From contig OY970350.1 in assembly GCA_963718045.1 (NCBI GenBank), positions 630,001 through 662,000 of the forward strand: a DNA stretch of 32,000 nucleotides, given 5' to 3'. The notes beneath the pieces were generated by a model. It was not told the origin of the DNA. It worked only from the letters and a program-made list of their open reading frames with translations, and ran no database searches. A program made the position numbers and the translations under genes. This DNA comes from Candidatus Saccharimonadota bacterium. GTDB lineage: Bacteria > Patescibacteriota > Saccharimonadia > Saccharimonadales > UBA4665. This document shows positions 151 through 30,976 of the stretch, in pieces (position 1 is the first letter of the stretch; every line of letters starts with the position of its first letter).

Positions 151-665
151 CCTATTTTATTGTGTATGAAGTAGTAGCTTGAAGCAGTACTTGCAGGCAT
201 TATCCGCGTATCAACCTCGTCAAAACCAACTCTATTCATTTCTGAAATAGTCCAACTACCATTATCAGGATTGACACTCTCAACAAATGCCACGTGACCT
301 AGCCCGCCAGGTGCATTAACGTCAACCATGATTGCCGTGTAGCTTGGTGTTTGATCGACTAAATAACCGTCAGCTTGGGCTCTGACAGCCCAAGTTATGG
401 CGTTGCCCCAGGTATTAGGGATAGGCTCCCCTGCTTTTGCCCGAAGAAGTGACACCCAATAGGTACAGTTGCCGAATGCATAGTCATCATTAGCAGCTAA
501 TGGTCCTTCGTATAGATATATATCCATGTTTGGGCCAGAAGACGAGGAGCCAGCCAGAACAAGTAGATTAGTCAAAGAGGACAGTGTAATTATTGGCAGA
601 AGCAATAATGTGATAAGAACCGCTGCAGCTATACCGCTATATAACTTTATGTTACTTTTTAGCAT
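147..665 (-). CDS. CHAP-domain peptidoglycan hydrolase with an N-terminal membrane anchor or signal; VirB1/PrgK-type T4SS cell-wall hydrolase analogue
   Basis: ATG start. Hydrophobic N-terminus GIAAAVLITLLLLPIITL. CHAP catalytic motifs are present: Cys in FGNCTYWV, His in GHVAFVE, then ISEMN. It is the last gene of the T4SS cluster and overlaps the virB4 stop by 14 nt. Confidence 0.8.
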   Translation of the reverse strand: MLKSNIKLYSGIAAAVLITLLLLPIITLSSLTNLLVLAGSSSSGPNMDIYLYEGPLAANDDYAFGNCTYWVSLLRAKAGEPIPNTWGNAITWAVRAQADGYLVDQTPSYTAIMVDVNAPGGLGHVAFVESVNPDNGSWTISEMNRVGFDEVDTRIMPASTASSYYFIHNKIG

Positions 666-2367: not shown

Positions 2368-2995
2368 CTTGCCCACCCTTCAGCACAAATTCTGAACCCA
2401 TAACATCTAGTGCTTTTTGGCTAAGTGGTTGGGTTTTTGACCTTTCCGGAGAGTAAAAACTGTAGAAGAGGTCAATTACTTCTATTGAACCCAGTTGCTT
2501 GGTGATAATGCCTAGTCTGCTTAAATTCTTGGACACTATATCCGCTCTTATGGACAATTGGTCTCGAATACTGGCTATACCTATGTTTTTTATATCGTCA
2601 TATGGAATGACTACATAAAACTGTCTGCTTAAGATTTTGTTAGAACTAATTAAAGTGGAAATGAACTTTCTATAGCTAATCAGCTGTGCTTTGTATATTT
2701 CTTCAGGCTCTTCGTCAAGCCGCAGATTTAATGAGTTTAGATAGTCATCAATATCTATTTCCCTAGTCCTTATTAGAAGCTGGATTGGAAATCCGATTGA
2801 GTTTAAGAAACTTTCAAAGGTATCTATTAGCGCGTCCTTTTCGTCTTCACTTTTTAGTTCAAAGTTAATTGAGCTGGTTGCCATCACTTGGCGGTACTTA
2901 TTATTAGACAGCTTCAATATGCCGCCTGAAATATCGCGAATATCTACCTGGGAAGAACTGCTTCCCTTCTTACCGAGAATAACTGACTTTAACAA
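2360..2995 (-). CDS. T4SS-associated protein, possibly a separately encoded VirB4 N-terminal domain
   Basis: TTG start preceded by a strong SD, AGGAGGA (3000-3006 on the plus strand), 4 nt upstream. The segment DIRDISGGILKLSNNKYRQVMATSSINFELKSEDEKDALIDTFESFLN resembles the extreme N-terminus of long monoderm VirB4 proteins, from memory. It sits between the PrgI-like gene and virB4. Confidence 0.5.
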   Translation of the reverse strand: MLKSVILGKKGSSSSQVDIRDISGGILKLSNNKYRQVMATSSINFELKSEDEKDALIDTFESFLNSIGFPIQLLIRTREIDIDDYLNSLNLRLDEEPEEIYKAQLISYRKFISTLISSNKILSRQFYVVIPYDDIKNIGIASIRDQLSIRADIVSKNLSRLGIITKQLGSIEVIDLFYSFYSPERSKTQPLSQKALDVMGSEFVLKGGQDD

Positions 2996-3458
2996 TTAAT
3001 CCTCCTGCTCTCTGATGAAAAGTTACGCTGTATTTCTGATCACTCAGCAACTTATGACCGATACCGCTGGACTTCATTTCTTGACGGGCTTCTTTGACTG
3101 TAAAAGTGTGTTTAGATCTCGGCTTTATAGGTTCAGAGATTTTTGTCAAAACATGGGTCAGTGGTTGTTTTTTGAAAACATAAACATGCGGACGAAGCTC
3201 ATATTTAGCTCTTAGTTTTAAGATATCTATAACTAAGTGGCTGTTTATTCTAAGTGCCAGTAAGGCGCATACTGCTGAAATGAAAATAATGAGTATTAGT
3301 TTATATATGGAAAATTTACCGAGAGGCGGCAAGATAAAGTAAATAACCGCGCTAATAAATATTGGTACGGCCAATAACAAAATTTGTGTCAGATTTAAGT
3401 TACCGGCTATCCGGTCTTCAACTGTCGTAATTTGAGCGGGTATGACTGAGACTCTCAT
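2970..3458 (-). CDS. PrgI-family / VirB3-like small T4SS membrane protein
   Basis: ATG overlaps the upstream stop (TAATG). N-terminal TTVEDRIAGNLNLTQILLL is followed by two hydrophobic helices. Its position between the VirB6-like gene and virB4 matches the PrgH-PrgI-PrgJ order of pCF10. Confidence 0.65.
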   Translation of the reverse strand: MRVSVIPAQITTVEDRIAGNLNLTQILLLAVPIFISAVIYFILPPLGKFSIYKLILIIFISAVCALLALRINSHLVIDILKLRAKYELRPHVYVFKKQPLTHVLTKISEPIKPRSKHTFTVKEARQEMKSSGIGHKLLSDQKYSVTFHQRAGGLIVKVSYSR

Positions 3459-4804
3459 TATTTAACCTCGCTCCTATTTGTCGGCATAGGCGACTCAGAA
3501 GGTTTCGTCTGGCCGGCTGACTTAGTTTCTGGTAAGTTGCTAAATTTAAGACTGTTTGAATTTGAATAATTACGGCCTCTAGTTCTTCCGGAATTAGTCG
3601 GCAAGTAGCTATTAATTGTATTGACTGCCTGGCTGCCAATATAGCTGGCGCCCATGACAATTCTCTCAGCGATTTGCCGTGACATTCTGGGGCCGATTGA
3701 GGCGTAAGATAACTGGTTCATTACTCCTTGTGTCTTTAAGAGAGCAACAAGTGTAGCCAGGCCGACAATCATGGCCATAAGCGGATCGGGTGTTTGATTT
3801 GTGCTAATAATGCCGGTTAGCAATGAGGCCGCTAATTCTAAAATGACGACATGGACGAATAGAACGAAGATAGCCGAGAAATACCGCTTACAAGCGGATA
3901 TGGCCATATCTCTTAAACCAGGCAGCAGCCAGCAAAGGATAACAATAGGAGCAAGAACTGCGCCAAGATAAATAGTTACAATACGGCCGACGTAAAAGAT
4001 TAGGAGAATTACACTGAAGACCAAGAAAATGGTCATAATAATCAGGGCAGCAAGGCCATAAGCAGATGGCTGTTTAACTACTTCGCTTAAAACGTTCCAG
4101 ACACTTTGGGCAGCATTATTATTGCTGATCGCTTTTATTAAAATATTAGACAGTCCAATCACGGCATCGATAATAAATATTGAGCTGTTAATGAACATAA
4201 AGGCGATAGATATCTGGGGCAGTAACTGTCTTATGTTTACTTCACCAATACCCAGACTATAAAAACCCATCACATGCAGACCGAGGAAGACTATACATAG
4301 CACCATCAGTGCATCAGCTATGCCGACACTGCTAACCCATAGGTTAAATACACTATGGTTGGCTGCCGCCAGTGGCGTACCAGACGTAAAATAGCTTAGA
4401 GCCTTTAGAAATGGTATGGCAACAGTCTCAACAATGGCACTCAGTACGCCTGTAATGGCTTTTATAATTACCGTGATTAGACCACCCGATGAGCTGGTTG
4501 GCTTAATGGCACTAAGACTTGGTACAATGCCATTTGTACCATTTACCGGTAAGGGCCCGTAGGCACTTTTTAAAAAGTTGCTGAGCAGAGCAGCAGCTAG
4601 GACAATCACTAATCCGATTAGAGCATTTTTGATAATCCTTTTAGCCCGAATTAGATTCTCAGGATTACCTGAGCTGGTTATATATTGATAACCGCCAATC
4701 ATAACAAAGAGGGCGCATATGATAGAGCTAAGTAAGCTTATTTCAGTAACTACCGGTGCGATTGATGAGCTGACTATGCTAGTTGCATCGGCAAAAAAGA
4801 ACAT
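3458..4804 (-). CDS. VirB6/TrbL-like polytopic T4SS channel protein with an N-terminal pilin-like module
   Basis: 448 aa with many hydrophobic helices and a polar Ser/Asn/Arg-rich C-terminal tail. The N-terminal 80 aa (GGYQYITSSGNPENLIRAKRIIKNALIGLVIVLAAALL) is a paralogue of the adjacent 116-aa pilin. It starts 2 nt after the pilin stop. Confidence 0.65.
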   Translation of the reverse strand: MFFFADATSIVSSSIAPVVTEISLLSSIICALFVMIGGYQYITSSGNPENLIRAKRIIKNALIGLVIVLAAALLSNFLKSAYGPLPVNGTNGIVPSLSAIKPTSSSGGLITVIIKAITGVLSAIVETVAIPFLKALSYFTSGTPLAAANHSVFNLWVSSVGIADALMVLCIVFLGLHVMGFYSLGIGEVNIRQLLPQISIAFMFINSSIFIIDAVIGLSNILIKAISNNNAAQSVWNVLSEVVKQPSAYGLAALIIMTIFLVFSVILLIFYVGRIVTIYLGAVLAPIVILCWLLPGLRDMAISACKRYFSAIFVLFVHVVILELAASLLTGIISTNQTPDPLMAMIVGLATLVALLKTQGVMNQLSYASIGPRMSRQIAERIVMGASYIGSQAVNTINSYLPTNSGRTRGRNYSNSNSLKFSNLPETKSAGQTKPSESPMPTNRSEVK

Positions 4805-5354: not shown

Positions 5355-6269
5355 TTATGAGTTTGATGATTCGACTATCTTTGGTACACCTAGGCGATCC
5401 CGAACTTTAAGCAGAGCAATAACCACCCCTAGGATTAGGAGGAAGGCTATATAGACTGACCTGTCTATCACGTTAGCAAGAACAATTGTTGATGAAGACA
5501 AATGATTAAGTTTCTCACTTAGGATTAAGAAGCTTTCCCTTATGCCGATGGCACCGGGGGTGAGGGCGACAAATAGTGCCAGATTGGCCGTACCGGTATA
5601 TGTCACAACCTGGCTGAACTTAACGCCGTGCTTTACGCTATGAATTTCAATCATATATATTATTGTTTGTAAGACTACCTGAGCTAGTGTAATAAGCGCC
5701 AAATACGAAAAACTTTTAAAGTGCAGTTTTAATCGAGCTTTTTGGTTTCTTCTTAGATATATCTTTATGCCTAGAACTGCTATAGCTATAACCGCTAGGA
5801 TAATTGGCAGGGTTAGATAATATGGCTGGCTGCCGGCCAGTATAAAGATGACCGATATAACAGCGTAAGTTAAATAATAGATGATAGTTGCTAGGGTGTA
5901 GTCCAGATATTTAAGCTGATAGTTCTTCTTCATATAATAGGCCCTGAAAGCAACACCTGTTTGGCCGGGAATAAAGAAGTTCATAAATAGTGAATAGCAG
6001 TTAATCAGGCTGTTTTCTTTTAGTTTTAGTCTCTTGCCGTTTAAATACATAGTCGCTTGAAATATGCCAATGAGAACACCAAGCATAAGAACGTAAAGCC
6101 CAAATACTTCGGCAGTTACATAGAGCGGTACATGTTTCAGGGAGGTTAACAGATTATGGTGTTTGTCGAAAAAGTAGACGGCAGCTGCTATAGTCGCTAA
6201 AATTAAGAGTGCACTAACGGTCTTTTTGGGAAAGTTAATGTATTTCTTGAGTTGATCTTTAGTATTCAT
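5355..6269 (-). CDS. Flippase-like domain membrane protein (MprF N-terminal / LPG-synthase-TM family)
   Basis: 304 aa, polytopic. Family-typical motifs are FIPGQTGVAFRAYYMKK and TPGAIGIRESFLIL. It is adjacent to glycosyltransferase genes. Confidence 0.6.
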   Translation of the reverse strand: MNTKDQLKKYINFPKKTVSALLILATIAAAVYFFDKHHNLLTSLKHVPLYVTAEVFGLYVLMLGVLIGIFQATMYLNGKRLKLKENSLINCYSLFMNFFIPGQTGVAFRAYYMKKNYQLKYLDYTLATIIYYLTYAVISVIFILAGSQPYYLTLPIILAVIAIAVLGIKIYLRRNQKARLKLHFKSFSYLALITLAQVVLQTIIYMIEIHSVKHGVKFSQVVTYTGTANLALFVALTPGAIGIRESFLILSEKLNHLSSSTIVLANVIDRSVYIAFLLILGVVIALLKVRDRLGVPKIVESSNS

Positions 6270-12172: not shown

Positions 12173-12910
12173 CTAATCTATGGCTCCGGTTGGGACGGGG
12201 TTGCCTGGAGGCAGATTAGAAGTGTTTGATCCTTTAGAGGGATTGCTTGTGCTGCTACCGGACGTATTAGAGGCATTATTGGTTGCCGAATTAGATGTCG
12301 GCGTCAATAAGCCTACCGGCACGACTATAACGGTTGTAACTTGGCCGCCATTATTAAATCCGATGCTGATTACTTCACCGTTAGATGATTCACCAACTAT
12401 ATTAGTACCGCTTAATTCCTGGCCATAAGGTCCTGTCTGCCAGGCCGATATATTTGATTCGGACAGATGAAAGTTCCAGGGGTTTTTGGCGCTCTCAATA
12501 GCACTGTCTATGAGCGAGGCTGCTTGTTTGCAGCTGATCGTTTCATTCACGCCTGACTCAACGATCTCGACATGGACTTTCGGTGCACAGTAAGAGCCAA
12601 GTATAGATAGGTTCTTATTAGCTACACCGGTTGTCAGAGCATTATAGGCTGAAGTTGATATGGTCGTATTGGTCTTTGAGGCTGCTGTTAGGTTAGAACC
12701 GGATTCAGTTTGAGACGACTTATGTGTACTGCCAAAAAAAATTATACCAATCAGTATACCGATGGCAATAAGGACCAATGCACCGCCTATTAGAGCCAAT
12801 GCCTGTTTACTGTTTATGCTTTTTATCTGGTTAGACGACGACCGGACAGATTTAATAGGTCTGCCTAGCTGCTGCTTTATGTTTGATTGTGAAATTTTAT
12901 ATCTGTCCAT
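12173..12910 (-). CDS. Hypothetical N-terminally anchored protein with Ser/Thr/Asn-rich segments; last gene of the pilus operon
   Basis: It has a single TM helix (ALALIGGALVLIAIGILIGIIFF), a small Cys-containing domain and a C-terminal tail NSATNNASNTSGSSTSNPSKGSNTS. The track start is TTG 12919; I prefer ATG 12910. I recognise no family. Confidence 0.45.
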   Translation of the reverse strand: MDRYKISQSNIKQQLGRPIKSVRSSSNQIKSINSKQALALIGGALVLIAIGILIGIIFFGSTHKSSQTESGSNLTAASKTNTTISTSAYNALTTGVANKNLSILGSYCAPKVHVEIVESGVNETISCKQAASLIDSAIESAKNPWNFHLSESNISAWQTGPYGQELSGTNIVGESSNGEVISIGFNNGGQVTTVIVVPVGLLTPTSNSATNNASNTSGSSTSNPSKGSNTSNLPPGNPVPTGAID

Positions 12911-12929
12911 AATATGCAAGTATATTGGC

Positions 12930-13349
12930 TTAAGGGGTATCCTGCCAACTGCTAATGATAATAGACGGTGAGGTCTGGGATGTTTTAACGGTTAGATTAT
13001 GGGAAAGTGTATTAGTGCCTTCGACATACGTACCGGTAGCGGTAATTACGTAGCTGGGTGAGCTGCCGCTTATGCTGTATGTACATGTATCCGATGCCGC
13101 AAGGGTTGATGAGCCGTTATTTGGAGTAGTTAAGGTTGGATTAGCCTGAAGAGCTGCTAGAGCCAGTTCGGCGCAGCCGGTGGCTGCAGCTTTGGCATCG
13201 ACGCCGCCATCGGTCGCTTGAGCAGTTATGCTGGTATTTGAGCCGGTTAGAAGCAAAAATACGGCAATCGTAGCCATTACTATGCCTAGTATAAGAACAG
13301 TGATCAGGACTATGTAGCCGCCGTTTGATTTGTTAATCGGTTTACTCAT
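12930..13349 (-). CDS. PilX-N-like minor pilus protein (no Glu5)
   Basis: N-terminal NGGYIVLITVLILGIVMATIAVFLLL resembles the PilX N-terminal domain. It overlaps the preceding minor pilin gene by ATGA. Confidence 0.5.
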   Translation of the reverse strand: MSKPINKSNGGYIVLITVLILGIVMATIAVFLLLTGSNTSITAQATDGGVDAKAAATGCAELALAALQANPTLTTPNNGSSTLAASDTCTYSISGSSPSYVITATGTYVEGTNTLSHNLTVKTSQTSPSIIISSWQDTP

Positions 13350-13879
13350 TGGGGTATGCTGGCTGCTCCATAAAAAGTATTTTGGTAAGTAAACTCTTCC
13401 AAAGTCGAAGTGCTCTTATATGAAAGAGAGAAGCTGATTTGAATTGAGCCATTGGTACCGCTTAGTCCTTCGTTTGTAAAGCTTAAGTTAGATATGCTGA
13501 CATGCGAATTGGTCAGATAGGTATTAACCGACGGACTGCCCTGACTAATTTCCAGGTGATTAGTCGAGCCGTCGTTATATGTACTAAAAATAGTCGGGTT
13601 GACAGAGGTCTGCGGCATATTAAGTTCGATAGCACTGGCCGCAACGCCGCTATTAGGTGAGGCAATACTGCTGGCTTCATGAATATCCTGCTCGATTATC
13701 TCCATGGCGGCTTCACCTTGGTAATTGACAGCCGTAAAGACTTCATTTTTCTGACGCTCAGCAATTGAATTAATAGCCAGAGCCACAATGACCATAATAA
13801 TAGATGAAAAAATAGCAATGTACAGTAACACCTCAATAAGTGTAAAACCGCTGTTATTATTGTTATGTTTCATTTTCAT
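13346..13879 (-). CDS. Prepilin-type minor pilin
   Basis: NNSG/FTLIEVLLYIAIFSSIIMVIVAL class III signal. The track ORF extends to 13939, but ATG 13879 (MKMKHNNNNSGFTLIE) gives a normal short leader and lies 4 nt after the upstream stop. Confidence 0.75.
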   Translation of the reverse strand: MKMKHNNNNSGFTLIEVLLYIAIFSSIIMVIVALAINSIAERQKNEVFTAVNYQGEAAMEIIEQDIHEASSIASPNSGVAASAIELNMPQTSVNPTIFSTYNDGSTNHLEISQGSPSVNTYLTNSHVSISNLSFTNEGLSGTNGSIQISFSLSYKSTSTLEEFTYQNTFYGAASIPQ

Positions 13880-13883
13880 AGCT

Positions 13884-15659
13884 TTACTGATCCCATGCAA
13901 AATCAAACCATTTAGAATCAATGCTTGGACCGTCGGCATTATGGATAGTCCAGGCGAAGTCTGTCGGTGTAGTGTAGTAACTGTTGTTCGTAGCGTTATA
14001 CATGATCGAATAGAGATTGTCGTTGCCGTCGATCATTAATACCATGGCATCGTTAGAGCCAGGTTCAGGTATGATATGGGTTTTATATATAGTAGTTGAG
14101 GCATTTGGTGCGGCCAGCGAAGTCGATTCCCAGGTATTAGTTGACGAGTTAAATGTTTTAAGCTGTGTCGAAGAGGTATCGTTGGAGTAAGCAATTAAAC
14201 CAGTCGTACCAGATAGCAAGCCGTAGGCTAAGTCAGCGCTCTGCTGTTCGCCGTCATTACCATTTGAAGCCACAGTTTGATTTGTCGGGTTACTGACACC
14301 GCTAGGTTTTAGCGTATAGCAATAAATATGCTGGGTTGATAGATTGTCTTTGTCGCAGCCGATCCATTCCTCACTTGCTAGAGGCTGAGCGATAATGTTA
14401 TCGGTTACTGATTGTGACCCGCTTGGCTGGGCCGTGGTCGATATAGTGGAACCCCAGCTGCCTGATCCTTTGCCATTATCGGTGAAGATACTGAATTGAA
14501 GCGATTGATCAGTTGCGCTATTAGTAAATACGGCTGCACCCTGAAGTGTATTGACTGGACTCCAGGCAAAATCGACGTTTTTAGTACTGCCGGATGTACC
14601 GCTGGCAGCTAGGGTCGTATTGGCTGACCAGCTGGTACCGTTATAGAAGCTGGCAACTGTTTCGCTGTCTGCGCCAAGCATCACTACCATCGCTTCATTA
14701 GCTCCGGGACGAGCTTCGACTATCATCGACTCCGGATAGTCATTCTTATCTGAACTAATAGCCGAAAGAGCACCCTGGGTACTCCAGGTGGTACCAGTCC
14801 AGGTATTGTATTTGGGCGTGTTGGTATTGTCGTCATAGACGGCCACAAAGGTACCATTAGCCATGTAGCTGCCGCTAAAGTTACCGCTAGCGTCAAAGCC
14901 TGAGCTAGACCAGGATGTCAGCAGCTGGACATTGCCCCAGCTGGTACCATTCCAAACCATGCCGTACAGATACTGTTTAGACGAATCATACAGCCTGGCC
15001 AGCATTACCTTGTCGTCACCTGTCTGAGCCGGATAAAGTTTGACTGATTCGGCAACTTCGTTATCTGTCTTAGGATCAAAGGCCGGCAGCGGCGATGGAT
15101 TGGTCCAAGTTCCGGTTGATTGCAGCAGCTGGTAATCTATAAGCTCTTTGTTGTCGCCGCCGTTAGCGTAAACCAGCAAACCAGTACGTGTTTGAACTGG
15201 GTTTGTGGTACCAGCCGACCAGTTGGACATATATGTTGTTGCTGACAGTAAACCGTTGCGGGTAATATCCTCTTTCCAGGTGACAGTTACGGTAACCTGA
15301 CGGCTATCGCTGATTGGGCCAGCTGAAAAGACTACGGCTGGTGTATAAATGCCGTTTATTAAAGTTGGCGAGGAGGAAAGCGACCACTGAGTGCCGGTCT
15401 GCTGCAGGTAATAAGTAGTGCCGTTAGTATAGTTGCTTAAGTTTAAATAGTTGCTGTCAGATATGTTATGGACCGCTTCAATGGATTCATTAACAATCTC
15501 AGAAGCTATCATATTATTTCCAGAAACCACTGTAGCGTCCCGTCCGTAAATAAAAGCAGATAAGGCTACAAAGGCCAGCATGGCAAAAATAGCAATTGCC
15601 AGTATTATCTCAATCAGCAGGAAACCCTTTTGGTCTGTCGGCTTCAAATTAACCTTCAT
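13884..15659 (-). CDS. Large prepilin-type protein: minor-pilin N-terminal domain fused to a ~430-aa repeat (beta-propeller-like) domain; candidate pilus tip adhesin
   Basis: DQKG/FLLIEIILAIAIFAML class III signal, then a pseudopilin-like block ending RQVTVTVTWKE. Seven or eight repeats follow, each a hydrophobic strand plus an xGTxW motif (detailed in the findings). It overlaps the upstream gene by ATGA. Confidence 0.7.
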   Translation of the reverse strand: MKVNLKPTDQKGFLLIEIILAIAIFAMLAFVALSAFIYGRDATVVSGNNMIASEIVNESIEAVHNISDSNYLNLSNYTNGTTYYLQQTGTQWSLSSSPTLINGIYTPAVVFSAGPISDSRQVTVTVTWKEDITRNGLLSATTYMSNWSAGTTNPVQTRTGLLVYANGGDNKELIDYQLLQSTGTWTNPSPLPAFDPKTDNEVAESVKLYPAQTGDDKVMLARLYDSSKQYLYGMVWNGTSWGNVQLLTSWSSSGFDASGNFSGSYMANGTFVAVYDDNTNTPKYNTWTGTTWSTQGALSAISSDKNDYPESMIVEARPGANEAMVVMLGADSETVASFYNGTSWSANTTLAASGTSGSTKNVDFAWSPVNTLQGAAVFTNSATDQSLQFSIFTDNGKGSGSWGSTISTTAQPSGSQSVTDNIIAQPLASEEWIGCDKDNLSTQHIYCYTLKPSGVSNPTNQTVASNGNDGEQQSADLAYGLLSGTTGLIAYSNDTSSTQLKTFNSSTNTWESTSLAAPNASTTIYKTHIIPEPGSNDAMVLMIDGNDNLYSIMYNATNNSYYTTPTDFAWTIHNADGPSIDSKWFDFAWDQ

Positions 15660-16120
15660 GAGTAATCCACCATCCCCATAGAATTAATGGTTACTACTAT
15701 TGAGTTACTGTTATCTTTTAAAGTGAAGGTCCCAGTAGTTGAAGGAAAGCCGTAAAGTTTAGAAAAGTCCACTTCGGATGGCCCGCTGACAGTTATACTA
15801 ACCGGCATGGTAAAAACATTGGCTGTGCTAGTATTCCTGGTAGCATAGCTGCTGCCGGCGTATAAGGTAATTGTTTGATTGGTAATATATACGCCGTAGG
15901 AAGAGCTATTTTCTTCGCTGCGGCTTAATATCTGGGCCTGGTATAAGTCCTGGACTAAGGTATTGACAGTGACGTCAAGTCCATTGCTGTTTTGAAGGTT
16001 ACTATAAACCGGCAAGGCAAAAACAGCCAGAACGGCAATTATACCGACTACCACAACTTCTTCAATAAGGGTATAGCCAGCCTGTCCTAATGACCCGAGG
16101 CCAAGTATCTTATGTCTCAT
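15656..16120 (-). CDS. Prepilin-type minor pilin (FimT/GspH-like)
   Basis: GQAG/YTLIEEVVVVGIIAVLAVFALPVY class III signal. It is 154 aa and overlaps the pilC stop by TAATG. Confidence 0.75.
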   Translation of the reverse strand: MRHKILGLGSLGQAGYTLIEEVVVVGIIAVLAVFALPVYSNLQNSNGLDVTVNTLVQDLYQAQILSRSEENSSSYGVYITNQTITLYAGSSYATRNTSTANVFTMPVSITVSGPSEVDFSKLYGFPSTTGTFTLKDNSNSIVVTINSMGMVDYS

Positions 16121-17403
16121 TATCCGCTCGGTTGGGTGTTAAACTGCCCTATCAACGAATAGATTGGCAAAAAGACAGCCAGAGCCACAAATAGTACTGC
16201 TACAGCAATTACAATCAGTACCACCGGTTCTAGTAAGGTCTCCAGATTCTTAGCCGTTATATCGGCTTTTTCCTGATAATTATCGCCAATTTTAAGCAGG
16301 CTTTTATCTAAGTTACCGGATTTTTCAGCGCTAATTATTATCTGGCAGACTGTTCCAGATAATAACTTCCGATTTTCAGGTCTTTGCAGAATTCTGGTAA
16401 AAGAACTGCCTTCGTCTACTTCATCATAAAGTTTGCTTGAAAACATCTTGTAGCGAGCGGTAGACATTGAGCTGACTAAAGATTGAAGAGCAGTAATTAC
16501 CGGCAAACCGGCTTCCAGCATTGAACCCAATATGAATCCGAACCTGGCAACTTCGGTCTGGAAGAGCAAAGTTTTAATTCCAGGTAAGTGAAAGATTATG
16601 ACTTCACTGGCTGCTCTTACCTTCTGATTTAGTTTAACGGCCACGTATAAAGCGGCCACAAGTAGCACAATCAGTCCTGCCAGCAGCAGTCCGTAGTGGC
16701 CGAAAAACCTGCCGAATATCATTAGGCCATCGGTAATTGGGCCAACCTTTTCATGAAGCGATTGAATAACTGTCATTAATTTTGGTAAAAGAAACACACC
16801 GATTCCGGTACCTACTACAAATAGCAGGCTGACTAAAACTGACGGATAGAGCATGGCCGATCTAATTCGGGCGCTCATTTCGTTATTTTTATGCATTTGC
16901 ACAGCAACAACCTTAAGATTTTGCGGTAAGCGGCCGGTTGATTCACCAACCTCGATTAAAGTTACCACTGACGGATTAAACAGGCCGGTTTGGGCAATGG
17001 CCTCTGAAAACGGCACTCCGTCATCAACTTCAGTCCTTACCTTTAGAAGCGCTTTTTTAACAGATTTACGAGTTATTTCGGCAGTGATGGATTCCAAAGC
17101 TTCGCCAATGCTGACACCGGCTGGTAAGAGCATGCTAAGACCGTCCATAAAGTACTCGGCAGTATCCCGGTCAATGCCGCCAAATATCTTTTGTTTGGGC
17201 CTAGGTTTGGTTTTTTTTGGTGGGGGCGGTTTATCTAGTAGTTCGGGATTAGATTGTGAATTTTCAGTGCTTAGCTTAATGGCTGGTAAACCGGTGTTAG
17301 CCTGGGGCGTGCTTACTGGCTGCTTTGGTGTAATAGGCGGATTGACTATAGCCTGTGTGCTGCCTCTTGAAGGCAAATTGTCTGTTGTCTTATTGTTTTC
17401 CAA
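16120..17403 (-). CDS. pilC: Type IV pilus platform protein PilC (GspF family)
   Basis: There are two GspF-type repeats (LSMLLPAGVSIGEALESI and LGSMLEAGLPVITALQSL) and three TM helices. TTG start lies 3 nt after the pilB stop. A ~75-aa Pro/Lys-rich N-terminal extension (KPPPPKKTKPRPKQK) makes the start uncertain. Confidence 0.85.
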   Translation of the reverse strand: MENNKTTDNLPSRGSTQAIVNPPITPKQPVSTPQANTGLPAIKLSTENSQSNPELLDKPPPPKKTKPRPKQKIFGGIDRDTAEYFMDGLSMLLPAGVSIGEALESITAEITRKSVKKALLKVRTEVDDGVPFSEAIAQTGLFNPSVVTLIEVGESTGRLPQNLKVVAVQMHKNNEMSARIRSAMLYPSVLVSLLFVVGTGIGVFLLPKLMTVIQSLHEKVGPITDGLMIFGRFFGHYGLLLAGLIVLLVAALYVAVKLNQKVRAASEVIIFHLPGIKTLLFQTEVARFGFILGSMLEAGLPVITALQSLVSSMSTARYKMFSSKLYDEVDEGSSFTRILQRPENRKLLSGTVCQIIISAEKSGNLDKSLLKIGDNYQEKADITAKNLETLLEPVVLIVIAVAVLFVALAVFLPIYSLIGQFNTQPSG

Positions 17404-17406
17404 GGT

Positions 17407-19110
17407 TTATTTGGGCTCCGCTACCCGTTGAAGTTCTTCTAAGGTAGTAACACCTGATTCGACCTTATCGATACCGTCAGAGAACATATTGTGATCACCT
17501 TGAGCCCTGGACAGCTGTTCGATCTGATTAGTTGATGGGTTAGTTAAGATCAGTTCCTTCATTTGGGGCGTAATGTTTACCAGCTCGAAGATAGCAGTAC
17601 GTCCGTGGTAGCCGGTAAAGTTGCAGCCTTCGCATCCCTGGCCGCGGTAGAGAGTGACATTTGGTCCCTTAAAGTATTTCTCAGGATCGGGCAGCGTTCT
17701 TCCAATTTGATCAAGCGGTACGATAAAACTTGCCCGGCAAGCTTCATGGATCATCCGGACTAATCTTTGGGCGATAACCAGATTTAAGGTGCTGGCCAGC
17801 AAAAAGGGTTCAACTCCCATATCCAGCAGTCTGGGAATAGCCGAAGCGGCGTCATTGGCGTGGAGCGTTGAAAACAGCAGGTGACCGGTTAGGGCAGCAT
17901 TAACTGCCAGCTCGGCAGTCTCGTTATCTCTTATTTCACCGACTAGTATAACGTCCGGGTCTTGGCGGACCATTGATTTAAGCCCTTCTGAAAACGTTAA
18001 CTTAGTTTGAACGTTAACCTGAATCTGGTTGACGCCCAAGATCTTATATTCGACTGGATCTTCGATGGTCGTGACGTTAATTTCGGGATTGTTAATGAGC
18101 TTTAGAAGAGAGTAAAGAGTGGTTGTCTTGCCGGAGCCGGTCGGTCCGGTAGTGATTATCATGCCGTAAGGACGGTGAATCTGGTGGTCGAAAATCTGAC
18201 GGTCGCGGGCAGACAGGCCAAGACTTTTAACGTTTAAACCTCTTGAGTATTCGGCCAGCAAGCGCAGGGCTACTTTTTCACCGTCAAGTGTTGGTATGAT
18301 CGATATTCTGACGTTGACCGGTTTGCCGTCAACATCGTATCTAATGGCTCCATCCTGGCTCATATTGTGTTCGTCTATCCGCATATGAGCCTGGACTTTT
18401 AAGCGATTTAAGATGGTCTCATAATACTGTTTTTGGAGCTGGCCGGCTTCATGAAGCAGTCCGTCAATACGAAAACGGATTAACACTAAGTCTTCCATCG
18501 GTTCAAAGTGGATGTCTGAAACTTTGTAAGCTGTAGCGTCCTTGATAATTTCGTCAATAATTTCTGGAGCAACCCGATCTTGTTCTTGGATTATCTGGTT
18601 AAAGCGAGTGGCTAGCGGTTTACGGTAGTGGACCAGCGATTCATTTAAATCATCGGGCAGGGCATAACTGATACGCACTTCGTGGCCTGGAAAGATTTTG
18701 GCTAGAGCCTCATTCAGGCCGGCTTTTTTAGGGTTATCTGTAGCAACAGTGATCTGATTATCATTTATTTTATAGACAACTACCCTGAACTCCTGGCCGA
18801 TGTCGGGAGGGATCATATTAATATGCTCTTTGCTCGGCTGATAGATACCCAGATCGGCTGATTCTACTCCGTAATACTGAGCCAAAGCGTGTCCCAGCAT
18901 GTCGTAAGCAACAATGTTTTGATTGAGCAGATAATCGAATAGACTGATGTGATGAGAGGCTATGTAGTTTTCGGCTTTTTCGATGCCCTTTTGGTCTAGA
19001 AACTGACCATTAAGCAAGATTGTCTTTAATAATTGCTCATCGTACAATCCGGAATCTTGGGTCGGAGTTGCTGGCTGTGCTGCTTGATTTTGATTTGTTT
19101 GTTCGTCCAT
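17407..19110 (-). CDS. pilB: Type IV pilus assembly ATPase PilB (GspE family)
   Basis: Walker A GPTGSGKTTTLY, Asp box VTTIEDPVEY, Walker B DPDVILVGEIRD, His box GHLLFSTLHAND and CEGC. The track start is TTG 19131; I prefer the first ATG at 19110 (MDEQTN...). Confidence 0.9.
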   Translation of the reverse strand: MDEQTNQNQAAQPATPTQDSGLYDEQLLKTILLNGQFLDQKGIEKAENYIASHHISLFDYLLNQNIVAYDMLGHALAQYYGVESADLGIYQPSKEHINMIPPDIGQEFRVVVYKINDNQITVATDNPKKAGLNEALAKIFPGHEVRISYALPDDLNESLVHYRKPLATRFNQIIQEQDRVAPEIIDEIIKDATAYKVSDIHFEPMEDLVLIRFRIDGLLHEAGQLQKQYYETILNRLKVQAHMRIDEHNMSQDGAIRYDVDGKPVNVRISIIPTLDGEKVALRLLAEYSRGLNVKSLGLSARDRQIFDHQIHRPYGMIITTGPTGSGKTTTLYSLLKLINNPEINVTTIEDPVEYKILGVNQIQVNVQTKLTFSEGLKSMVRQDPDVILVGEIRDNETAELAVNAALTGHLLFSTLHANDAASAIPRLLDMGVEPFLLASTLNLVIAQRLVRMIHEACRASFIVPLDQIGRTLPDPEKYFKGPNVTLYRGQGCEGCNFTGYHGRTAIFELVNITPQMKELILTNPSTNQIEQLSRAQGDHNMFSDGIDKVESGVTTLEELQRVAEPK

Positions 19111-19184
19111 AAACCGGGTTTCTCTTTTCAATATAAAGCTATGCCCATGCTCATGCTTAATATTCTCATCTATCTACTTCTTTT

Positions 19185-19193: not shown

Positions 19194-19225
19194 AAAACAT
19201 CAATTAATTCTTAAGCTTTAATAAC

Positions 19226-21868: not shown

Positions 21869-22891
21869 TTAGAACAGGCTTCGGCCGAGTTTTCGAGCGC
21901 GGTAGAAATAGTGCCCAATCGTACCAAGTACGGTTGCTATACCGGCTACAGCAAAGATGTTACCTGGGCCAGTGTTGACTAGAGAAGTAGGAGTAGTTGG
22001 GGTTGTAGGAGTTACTGGGGGTGTTACTGGAGGAGGAGTTGGGGCAGCAATTGTAATTGCTGCACTACAGTTATTACTAGTTACATTACCTAGGTTGGTT
22101 AAGACAGTAGCAGTAATTGTATAGTTGCCTGGTTTTGGGTATGTGTATGTTACCGGAAAGTCAGTTGACTTATAGATACTTATTGTGCCGTTACCGTAAT
22201 TAATGCTCGTGCCTGAAACTAACGCACTATTTGCTGTGTAGTTAACGCTATTAATTGTTACGTTATCGCCGTTAACAGCAGGTGTGGAGAGTAAATTACA
22301 GGTTGCCGGAACTGGTGCTGGTGGAATGACAGGACAATAAACTTTTGTCTGGAACTGAAGGTATTCGTCAATGGATTCTCCAAGACTGCCGATATCTATA
22401 CCGCCGCCGCTATCAGTGATTGTGTCAGCTAAGGTACCGTTTGCACTGCTGCTAATTACGTTGCCGGCGCTGTTAAGAAGCACGGTACTATCTTTAATGT
22501 AACTCTGAGTTTGAGCGCTAGACAGATTTAATGTAGCCTCAAAGCTGGTTTGAGGAGTTAAACCGTCGGGCGTATAAGCAGTTGCGACTGAATTATAAGT
22601 GGTATATGGGGTAATGGTATTGATGTTTGCTTCTACTTTTACATCATTTATAGAACCCGGACCAGGATTATATAGGTGTAAACGGTACTGCAAAACATCA
22701 CAAACACCAGCCGATTGAGTATTAGCAAAGCCACTGACCTGGGTAACATTAGAAATCTGGTAATTTGAGTTACCGCCTTCAATTTGTCCGGGGAGTTGGT
22801 CAGCAAACGCACTAGCACTCATTAATCCTAGTCCAGCTAGTAATGCTACCATGGCGCTAATGTAAGTCAGTTTTGAAAATATTTTCTTCAT
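21869..22891 (-). CDS. Secreted cell-surface protein with a PKD-like domain and an LPXTG-like (LVNTG) C-terminal sorting signal
   Basis: Strong SD (AAGGAG). Sec signal MKKIFSKLTYISAMVALLAGLGLMSASAFA/DQ. PKD-like block INYGNGT...TYTYPKPGNYTITATV. Pro/Thr linker APTPPPVTPPVTPTTPTTPTS. The C-terminus has LVNTGP, then the hydrophobic helix NIFAVAGIATVLGTIGHYFY, then the basic tail RARKLGRSLF. Confidence 0.7.
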   Translation of the reverse strand: MKKIFSKLTYISAMVALLAGLGLMSASAFADQLPGQIEGGNSNYQISNVTQVSGFANTQSAGVCDVLQYRLHLYNPGPGSINDVKVEANINTITPYTTYNSVATAYTPDGLTPQTSFEATLNLSSAQTQSYIKDSTVLLNSAGNVISSSANGTLADTITDSGGGIDIGSLGESIDEYLQFQTKVYCPVIPPAPVPATCNLLSTPAVNGDNVTINSVNYTANSALVSGTSINYGNGTISIYKSTDFPVTYTYPKPGNYTITATVLTNLGNVTSNNCSAAITIAAPTPPPVTPPVTPTTPTTPTSLVNTGPGNIFAVAGIATVLGTIGHYFYRARKLGRSLF

Positions 22892-22921: not shown

Positions 22922-24691
22922 TTAATTTTGTTCCCTTACAGCGAAGTAAAAGTCAGCACTTGAAGTTAAATGATTTACTTTATCGATAGCTGTAATAGTT
23001 ACCGTGTCGCTGTCAGGATTAGGGATATAGTCAGGTGCAGTGATTGTTTCACAGAACTCACTTACACTACTGTTATATTCTGGGGTAGTAACAGAACCTT
23101 CTTGAATAGTGGGTGGCAGAAATTCTACTCCGTCACTTACAGGGATCGAATAGGCTGATTCACAATCTACAAATGTAGCACCTTCATCTACCGTTTCTAC
23201 GTTAGCCGGTGCTGAAACGTATGGTGCATATTCAGGGATAGTGGTTGTAGTAGTTGATGTAGTTGTGGTGGTTTCGGGTACTGTGGTTGTAGTAGTCGTA
23301 ACCGGGTGTTTTTTCTTCTGTATTTCCCGGTCGGTGAAATAGAAGATATCACCATTAGGACCAACTACTTTAAACTGAGTAGGTTTTGTAACACTAGTCC
23401 ACTCTTGTCGGTTTTGATGTAGTGGGGTAAGTTCTGTGACGTCGGCAATACTGCCAACATTACATTCTCCAAGCGGTTGGACTAGTCTACCGTCTTTATC
23501 ATCATAAATCACTTCATGCTTAACGATTCTCTTACCGTCTTGGCAAACTTCCTTAAACCTGAAGGTGCCGGAAGGCGTATGAATAAATTCATTATCAGGA
23601 TTTTTAGTTTTCTTAACAACCGATACTTCGGCTTTTCTGGTAGGGATAGTGGTTGTGGTAGTTGTTGCAGGTCGTGTGGTTGTGGTAGTTGTTGCAGGTC
23701 GTGTGGTTGTAGTAGTCACTCTTTTAGGAATAGTGGTAGTAGTTGTAGGTTTAGGTCGTGTGGTTGTAGTAGGTGTTTGTTCTTCTATGACAATTATAGT
23801 ATCGCCACAATCAACATGGGCTTTAGCTTCAACTTGTAATTCACCAGTGACACTATCATATTCTTTAACTGCTTCATTTCCTTTACCTTCGCCGCTTTTT
23901 AGGTAACCTTCAACAGTAACTTCTTCACTGGCTTTAGCAGTGGCTGATGCTTCTCCACATATTTTGTGGAACTGGTCACGGCCAATAGCTAGGGCTGTAG
24001 CCTTAACACTAATGTCCATTTTGTCCTTAAAGCTTTTTTCTAGAATAACTGGGGTAGTAATGTAAGTAATATGTTCTGGTGGTTTACCAAATGGGATAAA
24101 GTAGTTACCGCAGTTATCTATAACTGTTCCATTTGGACCATGGTTACCGGCCTTTTCCCAACCAGTTGGGGAAGCGCTGTCTCGACAGACCAGTGTTGGG
24201 CGGTCATCCTTAAAAAACTTTACCTGGCCTAGCGTTGGGTGTTCTGGGCTGTGAATAGTATCACCGCTGTTCCATCCGCCAGGCGTCCAAAAACAATTAG
24301 TAGTAGTTATTTCTTTTTTCGGCACACCATTGGCATTTAAATAAGATAAGATGGTGATCTTGCCTTTTGCAACATCAGAAGCAGTCACGGTACTGTGACT
24401 CTCGCTAGTAGATTCATAAACTTTCTCGCTGCCAGGAAAATTAAGGGTCACACCTTTTGGAAGTTTTTCGGCAGACGTGATGGGCTTTGCACCTGCTGTG
24501 ACAGCTGTTACTTGTGTTGCGGCGCCTGCGCCGGTACTAGCCTCACCAAGTCCAATTCCAATTCCTGATGCGGCTAAAGTACAACCCACAAATAAACGGC
24601 GAGCTGTGATACTAGCTTCACGTACTGAATCAAAAATACTTCTTGAAGCTTCCTCTTGTGGCATAGCCTGTAACTGCTGAGACGATTCCAT
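22922..24691 (-). CDS. Secreted or lipid-anchored Cys-containing protein with mucin-like poly-Thr linkers
   Basis: I prefer ATG 24691, which has AGGAG 6 nt upstream; the track TTG is at 24697. The N-terminus has TARRLFVGCTLAASGIGIGLG. There are two Thr-rich blocks, TTTTRPKPTTTTTIPKRVTTTTTRPATTTTTTRPATTTTTTIPTRK and HPVTTTTTTVPETTTTTSTTTTTIPEY. I recognise no family. Confidence 0.55.
   Translation of the reverse strand: MESSQQLQAMPQEEASRSIFDSVREASITARRLFVGCTLAASGIGIGLGEASTGAGAATQVTAVTAGAKPITSAEKLPKGVTLNFPGSEKVYESTSESHSTVTASDVAKGKITILSYLNANGVPKKEITTTNCFWTPGGWNSGDTIHSPEHPTLGQVKFFKDDRPTLVCRDSASPTGWEKAGNHGPNGTVIDNCGNYFIPFGKPPEHITYITTPVILEKSFKDKMDISVKATALAIGRDQFHKICGEASATAKASEEVTVEGYLKSGEGKGNEAVKEYDSVTGELQVEAKAHVDCGDTIIVIEEQTPTTTTRPKPTTTTTIPKRVTTTTTRPATTTTTTRPATTTTTTIPTRKAEVSVVKKTKNPDNEFIHTPSGTFRFKEVCQDGKRIVKHEVIYDDKDGRLVQPLGECNVGSIADVTELTPLHQNRQEWTSVTKPTQFKVVGPNGDIFYFTDREIQKKKHPVTTTTTTVPETTTTTSTTTTTIPEYAPYVSAPANVETVDEGATFVDCESAYSIPVSDGVEFLPPTIQEGSVTTPEYNSSVSEFCETITAPDYIPNPDSDTVTITAIDKVNHLTSSADFYFAVREQN
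23651..23704. repeat. Perfect 2 x 27-bp in-frame tandem repeat inside the Thr-rich protein gene
   Basis: GGTTGTGGTAGTTGTTGCAGGTCGTGT occurs at 23651-23677 and again at 23678-23704. Each copy encodes TRPATTTTT on the minus strand. Degenerate copies flank it. Confidence 0.9.
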
Positions 24692-24783
24692 TAACAACTC
24701 CTGTTCTTAATTTGAATAATTAACAACTATTTACTTCTCCCACTTTCATGTCTTGACAGACATTCGAATGTGTTATGCAGTAA

Positions 24784-24865: not shown

Positions 24866-27085
24866 TTACACAGGAGCTAGTTCTTTGTTCTCTTCTTTGA
24901 CAGGCATAATACCTGGTTTTGGTGTTAGTTTGGCTTTAGGGAAGACAAAACCAAAGGTACTGCCTTTGCCCTCAGTGCTTTCAAATATGATTGAACCGCC
25001 TTCAGCAATAACTACCTTTTTAGCCATGAACAGTCCAAGGCCTGTGCCGTCTGGTCTGGCTTTACGGGCATTACCAGCTCGATAGAACTTAGTAAATAAG
25101 TGATGCTGTTCTGCTTTAGGTACGCCTATACCGTTATCTTCTATTCTTAGTTCAATGATGTTTGGGTTATCTATTAGTCTGACATTAATTTTACCGCCAG
25201 CCGGTGTGTAGTAGATAGCGTTATCTACGAAGTTCATGATAACTTGTCTGGTCTTTGTTTCATCTAGCATTAATGTTGGGAAGGACTTTGGTTTATCGTA
25301 ATTTATGTTTAGAGATTTAGATGAAGCTGTTTCACCTAGCTGGCTTAATTCCTGGTCAATAATTTCAGCTAAGTCAACTGGGCTAGGTTCAATGATGAAT
25401 TTACCGGTTTTAAGTCTGGATACATTAAGAAGATCAGCTATTAAATAGACCATTCGCTGGGAAGAGAAGAAGGCTTGTCCTAACATTTCTCTTTGGGGTT
25501 TAGAGACTTTACCAACATCACCGTCAAGCACCATACTAAGATAGCCCTTAACACTAGTTAAGGGTGTTCTAAGCTGGTGAGAGGCCATAGATATGAAGTC
25601 GTCTTTGGTTTCATCGAGAGCCCGCAGTTTATCGTTAGCCTGACGCAACTTTTTGGTAGCATCATCGATGCGAGCCTGTAAGGTAAGATTAAAGTTTTCA
25701 ATTTCTTGAAAGCGCAGAGCGTTCTGAATTGCAATTACTAATTCGTTGGCGACAATCTCAACAAGCCCTAAGTCTTGAGAGTTGTATAAATTGCCACTCT
25801 TTTTGGGCCCAAGGATTAGGTATCCGATGGCTTCATCCCCCGTATGAGAGGACACCTTCGCAACGACTGATATATTGTAATGCTGCAGGTTCTTTTGAAC
25901 CTCAACATATTTTTCATCTAAGGTATCGACGAAAATGAGGCTCTGTTCGGTAGTGCTCAAAGCTTTCTTAATTAAATTGGTAGCCTCTTCAGTCAAGGTT
26001 AGGCGTTGATTCGTCATAATCGTCTGACCAGCCACATTCCCAGTTTTCAATATCGTAAATGCACAGTAACTAGATTTAATGGTGTCTGCTATTAATGTAG
26101 CGCTTCTTCTAAGAAGCAATCTCATATCATAGGTTGATATTAAAACTTTATTAAACTCATCGAGAAAAAACTGCGTATCATAAGCATCTCGATAAAATAT
26201 CCTGTTACTTAATCTATCAAAGAACTGCTTTATGGGCTGGAATGTAAAAGCCAGAAATACAGCCATCACAACGTAGAGTAATTCCTGACCAGTAGAGACT
26301 CGCCTTAAATTAACAAGATGTGAAAGTATACCAAAGAGTACTACGGAATAGATGGCCGCCAAGGCAGCTAAGGTAAGTACATAACCCATTGTCCGGGCTA
26401 CAATTAGTCTGATATCTAAAAATCCGTGCTTTATCATGGCGTAGGCTACAAATAGTGAGAAAACAAGTAAAGAGAAGCCACCAAAATCCACGTATTGCGT
26501 ATTAACCTTCAGAAGTGTAAGAACATCGCCAGTAAAGATATTTACTACTAATGCAATAGTAATCCCAATTAAAACGAACTTAATTTGTTTCTTTTGACGT
26601 AGGTCGGCCCTTTTATATTTCTTAATTAAGATGCCTATACCTAACAACATATAGAGAATTCCTACCACGTCAGAAAAGGTATAGAGAAAGCCTACATTTT
26701 GAGGCTCAGCACCATAACTTGCAATTTTTACAGACGATAATCCGATAGGCGTCAGCAATAAAACAGATACAATAATCATGGGTAAAGAATAGATAATTTG
26801 CCTTTTAATATTGACTTTTGTCTGATATGGAAACACGAGAACAAAGTAATAAAATAAAAGAAACATTAACTGGCCGAAAAACAAAGCAAGCCTTAATAAC
26901 CAGAGGGCAGAGGTCGTGTTATGAGTTATATCTGCTAAAAATAAGAAGAGTAGCCATAGAGCCACAAAGACATTTAGTATCGCGTAAACTTTATTCGTTA
27001 TATTGCGAGCGTTGAGGGCTACAAAAATGCTAATTGACACAATTCCAATAATTGCAGGAATATAAGATATGAAGTTTACTTCCAT
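24866..27085 (-). CDS. Sensor histidine kinase with a large polytopic N-terminal domain
   Basis: H box SHQLRTPLTSVKGY, N box FVDNAIYYTP, G1 EDNGIGVP and G2 GTGLGLFMAK. The N-terminal ~300 aa has at least 7 hydrophobic helices, followed by a GAF-like region and a coiled coil. The track start is TTG 27142. I prefer ATG 27085 because AAGGA lies 8 nt upstream and the protein then starts directly in TM1. Confidence 0.85.
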   Translation of the reverse strand: MEVNFISYIPAIIGIVSISIFVALNARNITNKVYAILNVFVALWLLFLFLADITHNTTSALWLLRLALFFGQLMFLLFYYFVLVFPYQTKVNIKRQIIYSLPMIIVSVLLLTPIGLSSVKIASYGAEPQNVGFLYTFSDVVGILYMLLGIGILIKKYKRADLRQKKQIKFVLIGITIALVVNIFTGDVLTLLKVNTQYVDFGGFSLLVFSLFVAYAMIKHGFLDIRLIVARTMGYVLTLAALAAIYSVVLFGILSHLVNLRRVSTGQELLYVVMAVFLAFTFQPIKQFFDRLSNRIFYRDAYDTQFFLDEFNKVLISTYDMRLLLRRSATLIADTIKSSYCAFTILKTGNVAGQTIMTNQRLTLTEEATNLIKKALSTTEQSLIFVDTLDEKYVEVQKNLQHYNISVVAKVSSHTGDEAIGYLILGPKKSGNLYNSQDLGLVEIVANELVIAIQNALRFQEIENFNLTLQARIDDATKKLRQANDKLRALDETKDDFISMASHQLRTPLTSVKGYLSMVLDGDVGKVSKPQREMLGQAFFSSQRMVYLIADLLNVSRLKTGKFIIEPSPVDLAEIIDQELSQLGETASSKSLNINYDKPKSFPTLMLDETKTRQVIMNFVDNAIYYTPAGGKINVRLIDNPNIIELRIEDNGIGVPKAEQHHLFTKFYRAGNARKARPDGTGLGLFMAKKVVIAEGGSIIFESTEGKGSTFGFVFPKAKLTPKPGIMPVKEENKELAPV

Positions 27086-27141
27086 TATGTTTATCCTTAG
27101 CCAAAGTATATCATAGGATAAGTAAGCGTTAACTGAGTTCA

Positions 27142-30940: not shown

Positions 30941-30976
30941 ATTGTAAATAAAGTAAAGTTGTCTTAGGATTAAATT

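Follow-up and report, generated by a model that had tools for sequence, protein, structure and literature searches.

A minor pilin covalently joined to a predicted β-propeller in a type IV pilus operon of Candidatus Saccharimonadota, a candidate host-binding module

[quoted passage not shown] Among the means of attachment, type IV pili (T4P) have the best support, and for one minor pilin that bears a propeller, PilX2, there is already genetic evidence. PilX2 of Nanosynbacter lyticus TM7x is a minor pilin of T4P-2 with a C-terminal seven-bladed β-propeller like those of the PLL lectins and PilY1 (bioRxiv 2024, PMC11623550; ISME J 2025, PMC12206443). Deletion of PilX2 halves host binding while the filaments remain, and the host-binding data point to glycans (PMC11623550, PMC12206443). 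Modular pilins as a class were defined by Raynaud et al. 2021 (PNAS), where PilB, with a vWA module, and PilC, with a lectin module, of Streptococcus sanguinis are adhesins. The same survey lists 264 architectures with a total of more than 1,200 modular pilins, many of them from CPR phyla; among them is a pilin of Falkowbacteria in which IPR013211 occurs 12 times. Modules that domain databases lack would escape the survey, as its authors note. Here, we describe a gene located in a 32,000-nucleotide stretch of contig OY970350.1 (assembly GCA_963718045.1, Candidatus Saccharimonadota bacterium, positions 630,001–662,000 of the forward strand), referred to as the window. The gene (the target) encodes a protein of 591 residues. 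We consider it fairly probable that this protein is a modular type IV minor pilin whose grafted 47-kDa propeller serves as a displayed binding module, tethering the epibiont to its host. The gene and its parts are located in the window as follows.

13884–15659, minus strand: target gene, 591-residue modular minor pilin, from the open reading frame (ORF) list; stop codon at 13884–13886
15624–15659, minus strand: leader peptide, residues 1–12 (MKVNLKPTDQKG), read from the sequence; its last residue is the Gly before the predicted prepilin-peptidase cut
15216–15623, minus strand: pilin module, residues 13–148, ending in TYMSNW; from the AlphaFold2 (AF2) model and DSSP, with weak N_methyl/TIGR02532, ComGE and GspI matches
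15195–15215, minus strand: linker, residues 149–155 (SAGTTNP), the graft point; the sole internal segment with a predicted local distance difference test score (pLDDT) below 50, and the place where the bare pilin P0233 of a related operon ends
13887–15194, minus strand: propeller module, residues 156–591, eight predicted four-stranded units; from the domain-only AF2 model, repeat statistics, the unit table and Foldseek
15060–15194, 14883–15059, 14739–14882 and 14577–14738, minus strand: propeller units 1, 2, 3 and 4
14415–14576, 14241–14414, 14094–14240 and 13911–14093, minus strand: propeller units 5, 6, 7 and 8
within 13887–13910, minus strand: closing strand FDFAW, residues 585–589
14319–14357, minus strand: Cys435...Cys447, candidate disulfide between the neighbouring strands B and C of unit 6, from the unit table

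The ORF proposed in the initial annotation is present, as are all fourteen peptides quoted there, with RQVTVTVTWKE corresponding to residues 120–130. The N-terminus (MKVNLKPTDQKG/FLLIEIILAIAIF) forms a class III (prepilin) signal, in which Gly occupies position −1 and Glu position +5. In the motif KG/FLLIE (residues 11–17), Gly12 and Phe13 flank the cut and Glu17 is the +5 residue. As in class III pilins, a short polar leader runs up to the Gly, and then comes a hydrophobic stretch of some 20 residues with Glu at +5 (MKVNLKPTDQKG/FLLIEIILAIAIFAMLAF). Public metagenomes contain 58 homologs, about 50 of which are full length at roughly 590 residues, and the exact sequence of the target is also found in public metagenome-assembled genomes (MAGs). 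Among the full-length relatives, E17 does not vary and the conservation of G12 is at least 90%, nearly all family members show the signal pattern, and PF07963 is matched at E ≤ 1 by 30 of 48 relatives (best E 1.8e-6). No Pfam domain beyond this N-terminal motif was found in the approximately 50 full-length relatives. In the AF2 model, the pilin module consists of a long helix (residues 15–69) and a five-stranded β head (residues 82–145), with mean pLDDT values of 67–90 over 10-residue blocks; this long N-terminal helix with an antiparallel β-sheet head is the arrangement of the pilin fold. Gly, Ala, Ser and Thr make up 41% of the target, and such a composition is typical of exposed pilins (PMC11623550, PMC12206443). 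A profile search of the PDB sequences with the target gave matches confined to the N-terminal helix of geopilins and found no lectin.

The C-terminal part of the protein is repetitive. Alignment of its family profile with itself (hhalign) shows an off-diagonal match at an offset of about 111 residues (score 168.8, E 7e-22), with further matches at about 214 (151.9), 327 (58.1) and 51 residues (46.2). The top score among 40 column-shuffled versions of the same profile was 24.4. As the self-alignment scores exceed those of all the shuffles, the repeats are real and no by-product of the Ser/Thr/Asn/Gly-rich composition, which confirms at family level the regular repeat noticed in the initial annotation. 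The basic period is about 55 residues, nested in a two-blade super-repeat of about 110 residues that is present in four copies, with the units alternating in two flavours. The count of units is eight and not the seven first listed; the one that had been missed is the degenerate unit EEWIGCDKDNLSTQHIYCYTLKPSGVSNP (residues 416–473), which lacks the Trp and holds the only two cysteines of the protein. Cys435 and Cys447 are each at least 90% conserved across the family and are candidates for a disulfide.

Two known motifs were compared with the recurring xGTxW motif and set aside as looking convergent. The sialidase Asp-box (SxDxGxTW) differs in spacing, and no BNR match at E ≤ 1 was found in any member; for the Kelch units (a hydrophobic strand followed by GG...Y...W), no Kelch match at E ≤ 1 was found in any member either. 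Weak matches to DUF2510, a short Trp-containing motif domain, occur in 15 of the 48 family members (best E 0.0012) and presumably arise through the WNGTSW-type hairpin.

The full-length AF2 model, calculated with the family alignment as input, has a mean pLDDT of 87.7 and places an all-β domain after the linker. Modelled alone, this domain is predicted with a pLDDT of 94.0 and a predicted template-modelling score (pTM) of 0.92 and contains 32 strands in eight four-stranded units, the repeated unit expected of a β-propeller. The register of the C-terminal strand FDFAW matches that of the first strand in the other units; closure of the ring by the C-terminus is therefore implied. Foldseek comparison of the domain-only model with solved structures places Photorhabdus PLL/PHL lectins, all seven-bladed, in the first 22 positions, and the Burkholderia lectin BP39L ranks 36th. 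These lectins match with E values of 3e-10 to 4e-7 and TM-scores of 0.52–0.57 (query-normalised) or 0.63–0.69 (target-normalised). More than 500 structures match the propeller model at E ≤ 0.001; a search of a viral fold library returned generic propellers only and was uninformative. The propeller proposed from the letters alone is thus retained as the predicted fold, but the seven blades assigned to it are replaced by eight on the basis of the sequence and the strand pattern. No Pfam propeller model (RCC1, PilY1, BNR, Kelch, LVIVD or any other) matches at E ≤ 1 among the 48 members, which are the target and 47 relatives. The least conserved positions of the family are the loops after the fourth strand of each unit, and the ligand may vary with these loops.

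The target lies in a T4P operon, which comprises the following further genes.

17407–19131, minus strand: PilB-type assembly ATPase (T2SSE and MshEN; Pfam E 1.2e-122)
16120–17403, minus strand: PilC-type platform protein (T2SSF; Pfam E 6.1e-47)
15656–16120, minus strand: minor pilin 1, 154 residues, AG/YTLIE, ComGD/GspH-like (NCBIfam ComGD E 2.4e-8 and GspH E 1.9e-4, below the curated cut-offs)
13346–13879, minus strand: minor pilin 3, 177 residues, ComGF/GspJ-like (N_methyl E 5.5e-6, ComGF E 2.7e-5, GspJ E 1e-3)
12930–13349, minus strand: fourth small subunit, 139 residues, NGG/YIVLITVL, a hydrophobic N-terminus without Glu at +5
12173–12919, minus strand: 248-residue single-pass membrane protein, a conserved operon member with a 243-residue gene at the same position in the related locus L001
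11533–12054, minus strand: likely major pilin, 173 residues, EG/FTLIE (N_methyl E 5.9e-7, GspG E 5.6e-8, TIGR02532 28.7 bits, above the cut-off of 16.3)

The operon is tightly packed on the minus strand and several of its genes overlap. The target is the second gene of a four-gene minor-pilin set that follows directly on PilB-PilC, and by this second place it holds the position taken elsewhere by GspI, ComGE or PilV. Encoded with it on one strand are the ATPase, the platform protein and four other pilin-like proteins, and the gene order is retained in relatives at 54%, 35% and 30% identity. The propeller is joined covalently to a genuine prepilin module, as the initial annotation had supposed, and is encoded among minor pilins of a T4P operon. 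The surmise of a CPR origin in that annotation also holds, as the related loci come from MAGs of Candidatus Saccharibacteria/Saccharimonadales, the closest being 94% identical; in the source annotations, relatives of the target are named ComGC or PulG. At the junctions, the 3′ end of minor pilin 1 overlaps the start of the target at 15656–15659. The mechanical ORF of minor pilin 3 begins at 13939 and overlaps the target by 56 nucleotides; its true start is likely the Met at 13879 (MKMKHNNNNSG/FTLIE), located 4 nucleotides past the target stop, which gives a leader of normal length. Absence of Glu at +5 is a trait of the GspK/ComGG-type tip subunits of type II secretion systems (T2SS) and Com systems, and the 139-residue subunit may, judged by its sequence, be of this type. 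Its counterpart in L010 is 38% identical, and L001, L012 and L013 have genes of comparable length (137 and 142 residues) at the same position. The 248-residue membrane protein has no family match in Pfam or NCBIfam. A scan for promoters and terminators gave counts near those of shuffled controls; the site at 19214–19185, upstream of pilB, is the sole one that looks plausible.

Regulatory genes are found in the vicinity. The window contains a 7TM-HisKA histidine kinase and two single-domain response regulators (24866–27142 and 30548–31351). A histidine kinase, response regulators or both lie close to or directly upstream of pilB in relatives, with a PAS kinase and three regulators at the P0035 locus, a 7TM-HisKA kinase separated by two genes in L012 (1–833) and one regulator in L013. 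There is thus a hint of two-component control of the pilus.

The pilin and the propeller occur independently of each other. In L012, from a Saccharimonadales MAG, the same operon carries a plain pilin of 151 residues (P0233) in the slot of the target, with the next minor pilin immediately after it. P0233 aligns to residues 8–151 of the target with 53% identity and ends exactly at the low-confidence linker. In P0055, a homologous pilin module (36% identity, E 1e-19) is fused to an unrelated propeller of LVIVD repeats, the repeat that we take to be IPR013211. The two genes downstream of P0055 are homologous to the 177- and 139-residue genes of the window (31% identity for the 177-residue pair), which places P0055 in the slot of the target. 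This second minor-pilin slot can therefore hold a bare pilin or the same pilin with one of two propellers that are unrelated to each other. Stand-alone pilins related to this module are found across Patescibacteria and are sometimes named PilV by the Joint Genome Institute (JGI). A single-sequence search with the pilin module returned one protein; the profile search gave the stand-alone relatives, which are short proteins among the matches listed.

Among 1.84 billion cluster representatives, a profile of the propeller alone matched 1,551 proteins at E ≤ 0.001, and at E ≤ 1e-30 it still matched 194. The top matches are mostly pilin fusions of about 590 residues, and the propeller is also present, in one or many copies, in non-pilin proteins of sizes up to 7,926 residues. 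Its partners in these are cadherin-like domains, Big_9, DUF2341 and a set of six Laminin_G_3 domains (LamG, a ConA-like lectin domain). With its short linker and a module that folds separately in the model and is also found outside pili, the target has the features by which Raynaud et al. 2021 recognise a modular pilin.

Several variants of the architecture were seen among the relatives. Two giant proteins without a pilin signal, P0079 (6,719 residues) and P0104 (7,926 residues), match the propeller profile in 25 and 19 separate stretches, respectively, and by sequence probably contain several tandem propellers of the target's family. Nine three-module proteins (P0073, P0075, P0080, P0085, P0096, P0097, P0106, P0118 and P0133; 733–902 residues, with pilin signal) have an extra 200–300 residues before or after the propeller that match no Pfam family. 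In L013 (7889–9577 of a Magasanikbacteria contig), a distant Patescibacteria operon with the same layout, the slot of the target has a bare pilin of 154 residues; there, another pilin (562 residues), located further downstream, carries Laminin_G_3, such that the grafted module is on a different subunit. On a 7,403-bp contig of the European Nucleotide Archive (ENA), a near-identical gene is called as two ORFs, P0216 and P0062, consisting of a 168-residue pilin module (89% identical) and a 437-residue propeller starting with MQTRTG. This is probably a frameshift or an assembly error at the linker and not a natural split.

The following course is proposed for the target. The leader of 12 residues would be removed by a prepilin peptidase, and through its N-terminal helix the subunit would enter the complex of minor pilins that primes assembly and comes to lie at the tip of the pilus. 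Too bulky for the filament body, the propeller would be displayed there. It would bind a surface ligand of the host bacterium, with a glycan or glycoprotein of the cell wall as the most likely candidate, and the epibiont would be tethered to its host. Binding is favoured over other roles because the best fold matches are lectins and because the propeller is partnered with lectin and cadherin-type modules in other proteins.

Several observations weigh against this proposal. Prepilin peptidase (peptidase A24), PilT and PilM/N/O genes are all missing from the 32-kb window. The scores of the target against PF07963 (14.2 bits, cut-off 21.2) and TIGR02532 (14.8 bits, cut-off 16.3) are both below the curated thresholds. 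The count of eight blades and the closure of the ring are deductions, made from the pattern of strands and the register of the repeats. The similarity to PLL, PHL and BP39L is moderate, with a root-mean-square deviation (rmsd) of 5–6 Å and an identity of 12–14%; the moderate TM-scores and high rmsd would fit an eight-bladed ring laid over seven-bladed ones, without proving it. After the lectins, Foldseek lists the fucose lectin AofleA and then sialidases, a rhamnose-glucuronate lyase and other propellers. The most conserved residues of the family are chiefly structural Trp, Tyr and Gly in the strands, and no obvious conserved pocket is seen.

The carbohydrate-active propellers among the Foldseek matches are the reason to keep an enzymatic role as a rival, in which the propeller would be a glycosidase, a sialidase-like hydrolase or a polysaccharide lyase on the pilus or cell surface that cuts or remodels the cell-wall polysaccharide of the host. 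We regard this as improbable. Lectins rank first, with the best E values and TM-scores, no Pfam enzyme family matches at E ≤ 1 in any of the 48 members, no cluster of conserved acidic or basic residues is found on one loop class, and the non-pilin carriers pair the propeller with binding modules of lectin and cadherin type. In a further reading, the pilus would serve competence and the propeller would be its DNA receptor, similar to ComZ, the large DNA-binding minor pilin of Thermus. The best, although weak, minor-pilin matches in the operon are to ComGD, ComGE and ComGF, modular pilins can bind DNA (ComZ, discussed in Raynaud et al. 2021), and Saccharibacteria are naturally competent (PMC11623550). 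However, T4P-2 mutants of TM7x retain normal competence (PMC11623550), and the strong acidity of the propeller (pI 4.13, net charge −25; the family median is pI 5.5 and net charge −4) disfavours DNA binding. This reading appears very improbable.

The remaining alternatives concern the place of the protein in the filament. With its helix as a tether, in a cell with no outer membrane, the target could be an anchored surface protein outside filaments, or it could belong only to a short pseudopilus of the T2SS/Com type. The operon is indeed Com/T2SS-like (ATPase, platform protein and ComGD/GE/GF-like subunits), PilT and PilM/N/O are not encoded nearby, and ComGC and PulG are the names given to the relatives by the sources. 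Against this, Glu at +5 and the Gly at the cleavage site are strictly kept, as expected for subunits that dock into a filament, and the four-gene minor-pilin set is conserved together with its order. Moreover, T4P filaments of two kinds are produced by Saccharibacteria, and it is through them that the analogous PilX2 acts (PMC11623550, PMC12206443). We give this location a small chance. The target could also be mainly structural, priming or capping pilus assembly in the manner of PilY1/PilC, with the propeller as a scaffold that has no ligand. Its gene belongs to the core minor-pilin set, PilC stabilises PilK, and minor pilins together with PilY1 are described as priming assembly of type IVa pili (T4aP; Treuner-Lange 2020, as cited elsewhere). 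A role in assembly is nevertheless disfavoured because close relatives do without the propeller. As the slot in the same operon holds a bare pilin in these and an unrelated propeller in others, the propeller would be dispensable for assembly, an accessory. TM7x without PilX2 still makes filaments (PMC11623550). A purely structural role is therefore considered unlikely, and display of a binding module remains the preferred reading.

A broader proposal is more tentative, and we would sooner doubt it than rely on it: the second minor-pilin slot of Patescibacteria T4P operons could be an exchange point for unrelated binding modules that set the choice of host, and the WNGTSW propeller could represent a large unannotated glycan-binding family that is also used in giant surface proteins. 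The options at such an exchange point may be no module, the eight-unit WNGTSW propeller or the LVIVD propeller, with LamG or RCC1 on other pilins. A swappable module in this slot is a concrete candidate for a determinant of host specificity. The propeller repeat itself is newly defined and widespread (the 1,551 cluster representatives) and is unannotated in Pfam. With the target, the bacterial group of PilX2 has a second pilin-borne propeller, probably unrelated to the first; the current picture of pilus biology is unchanged by it.

Other features of the window are as follows. A type IV secretion (T4SS) cluster is located at 147–4804 on the minus strand and consists of a CHAP-domain protein (147–665), a VirB4/TraG-like P-loop ATPase (652–2376), a PrgI-family protein (2970–3458) and a 448-residue T4SS-pilin and TrbL/VirB6 protein (3458–4804); it resembles the monoderm-type T4SS reported to be essential in Saccharibacteria. 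A second protein of 591 residues (22922–24697, minus strand) was considered as a paralog of the target and rejected; despite the equal length, it is an unrelated Thr-rich protein that contains several poly-Thr linkers, matches no Pfam family and is a probable surface protein. So is the neighbouring PKD-domain protein of 340 residues (21869–22891, minus strand). An MprF-like lysyl-phosphatidylglycerol synthase is split over two genes 21 kb apart, for the transmembrane region and the C-terminal transferase domain (5355–6269 and 27142–28047).

Compared with known systems, the target resembles GspI, ComGE and PilV in being encoded by the second gene of a four-gene minor-pilin set and in its small head of about 135 residues. 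ComGE (E 2.5e-4) and GspI (E 7e-4) are its only family matches beyond the signal. They are weak and cover the N-terminal helix only, and the scores of 21.1 bits for ComGE (cut-off 49) and 20.0 bits for GspI (cut-off 44.35) are below those of equivalogs; equivalence to GspI/ComGE/PilV is weakly suggested, mainly by gene order. With PLL, PHL and BP39L, its best matches among solved structures, the propeller shares Trp-rich repeats of about 50 residues. These are seven-bladed, soluble and free-standing lectins, whereas the target has eight units, and the likeness is read as an analogy of fold and probably not as family membership.

The PilY1/PilC proteins of proteobacterial T4aP likewise present a large propeller, alongside four minor pilins, at the tip of the pilus and act as adhesins. 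They are, however, non-pilin proteins, held non-covalently by a C-terminal plug of 12 residues that augments the β-sheet of PilK, whereas the propeller of the target is covalently attached and the target is itself a pilin. No match to the Pfam family Neisseria_PilC (IPR008707) was found at E ≤ 1 in the target and its 47 relatives, and PilY1 does not appear in the 50 fold matches listed. As no homology is detectable, the comparison with PilY1 is an analogy only. The functional analogue of PilY1 put forward in the initial annotation is, to this extent, upheld: a pilus adhesin is the best-supported reading, but a common origin with PilY1 is not part of it.

The architecture had also been taken as undescribed, which it is not, since modular pilins were defined in 2021 (Raynaud et al.) and the propeller pilin PilX2 is already published (PMC11623550, PMC12206443). 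Like other modular pilins, the target combines a small pilin and a short linker with a bulky module that is also found outside pili and would be adhesive, probably at the tip. The graft differs, being a propeller repeat family that is unannotated in Pfam as compared to the vWA or ConA-like modules of S. sanguinis. As Pfam does not annotate this family, proteins of the target's kind would be missed by the InterPro-based survey of Raynaud et al. PilX2 is the closest counterpart in design. It comes from the same bacterial group, has a pilin-like helix and head followed by a C-terminal propeller, finds its best structural analogues in PLL-type lectins and is a proposed pilus adhesin that has been explicitly compared with PilY1. 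By description, PilX2 has a seven-bladed propeller of RCC1 repeats, a PilD signal is not predicted for it, and its gene lies apart from the machinery in a locus of pilins only, whereas the target has eight units and a canonical G/FxxxE signal and is located directly after PilB-PilC; neither RCC1 nor any other Pfam propeller model is matched at E ≤ 1 in the target and its 47 relatives. The target is thus probably a second, independent example of the PilX2 design.

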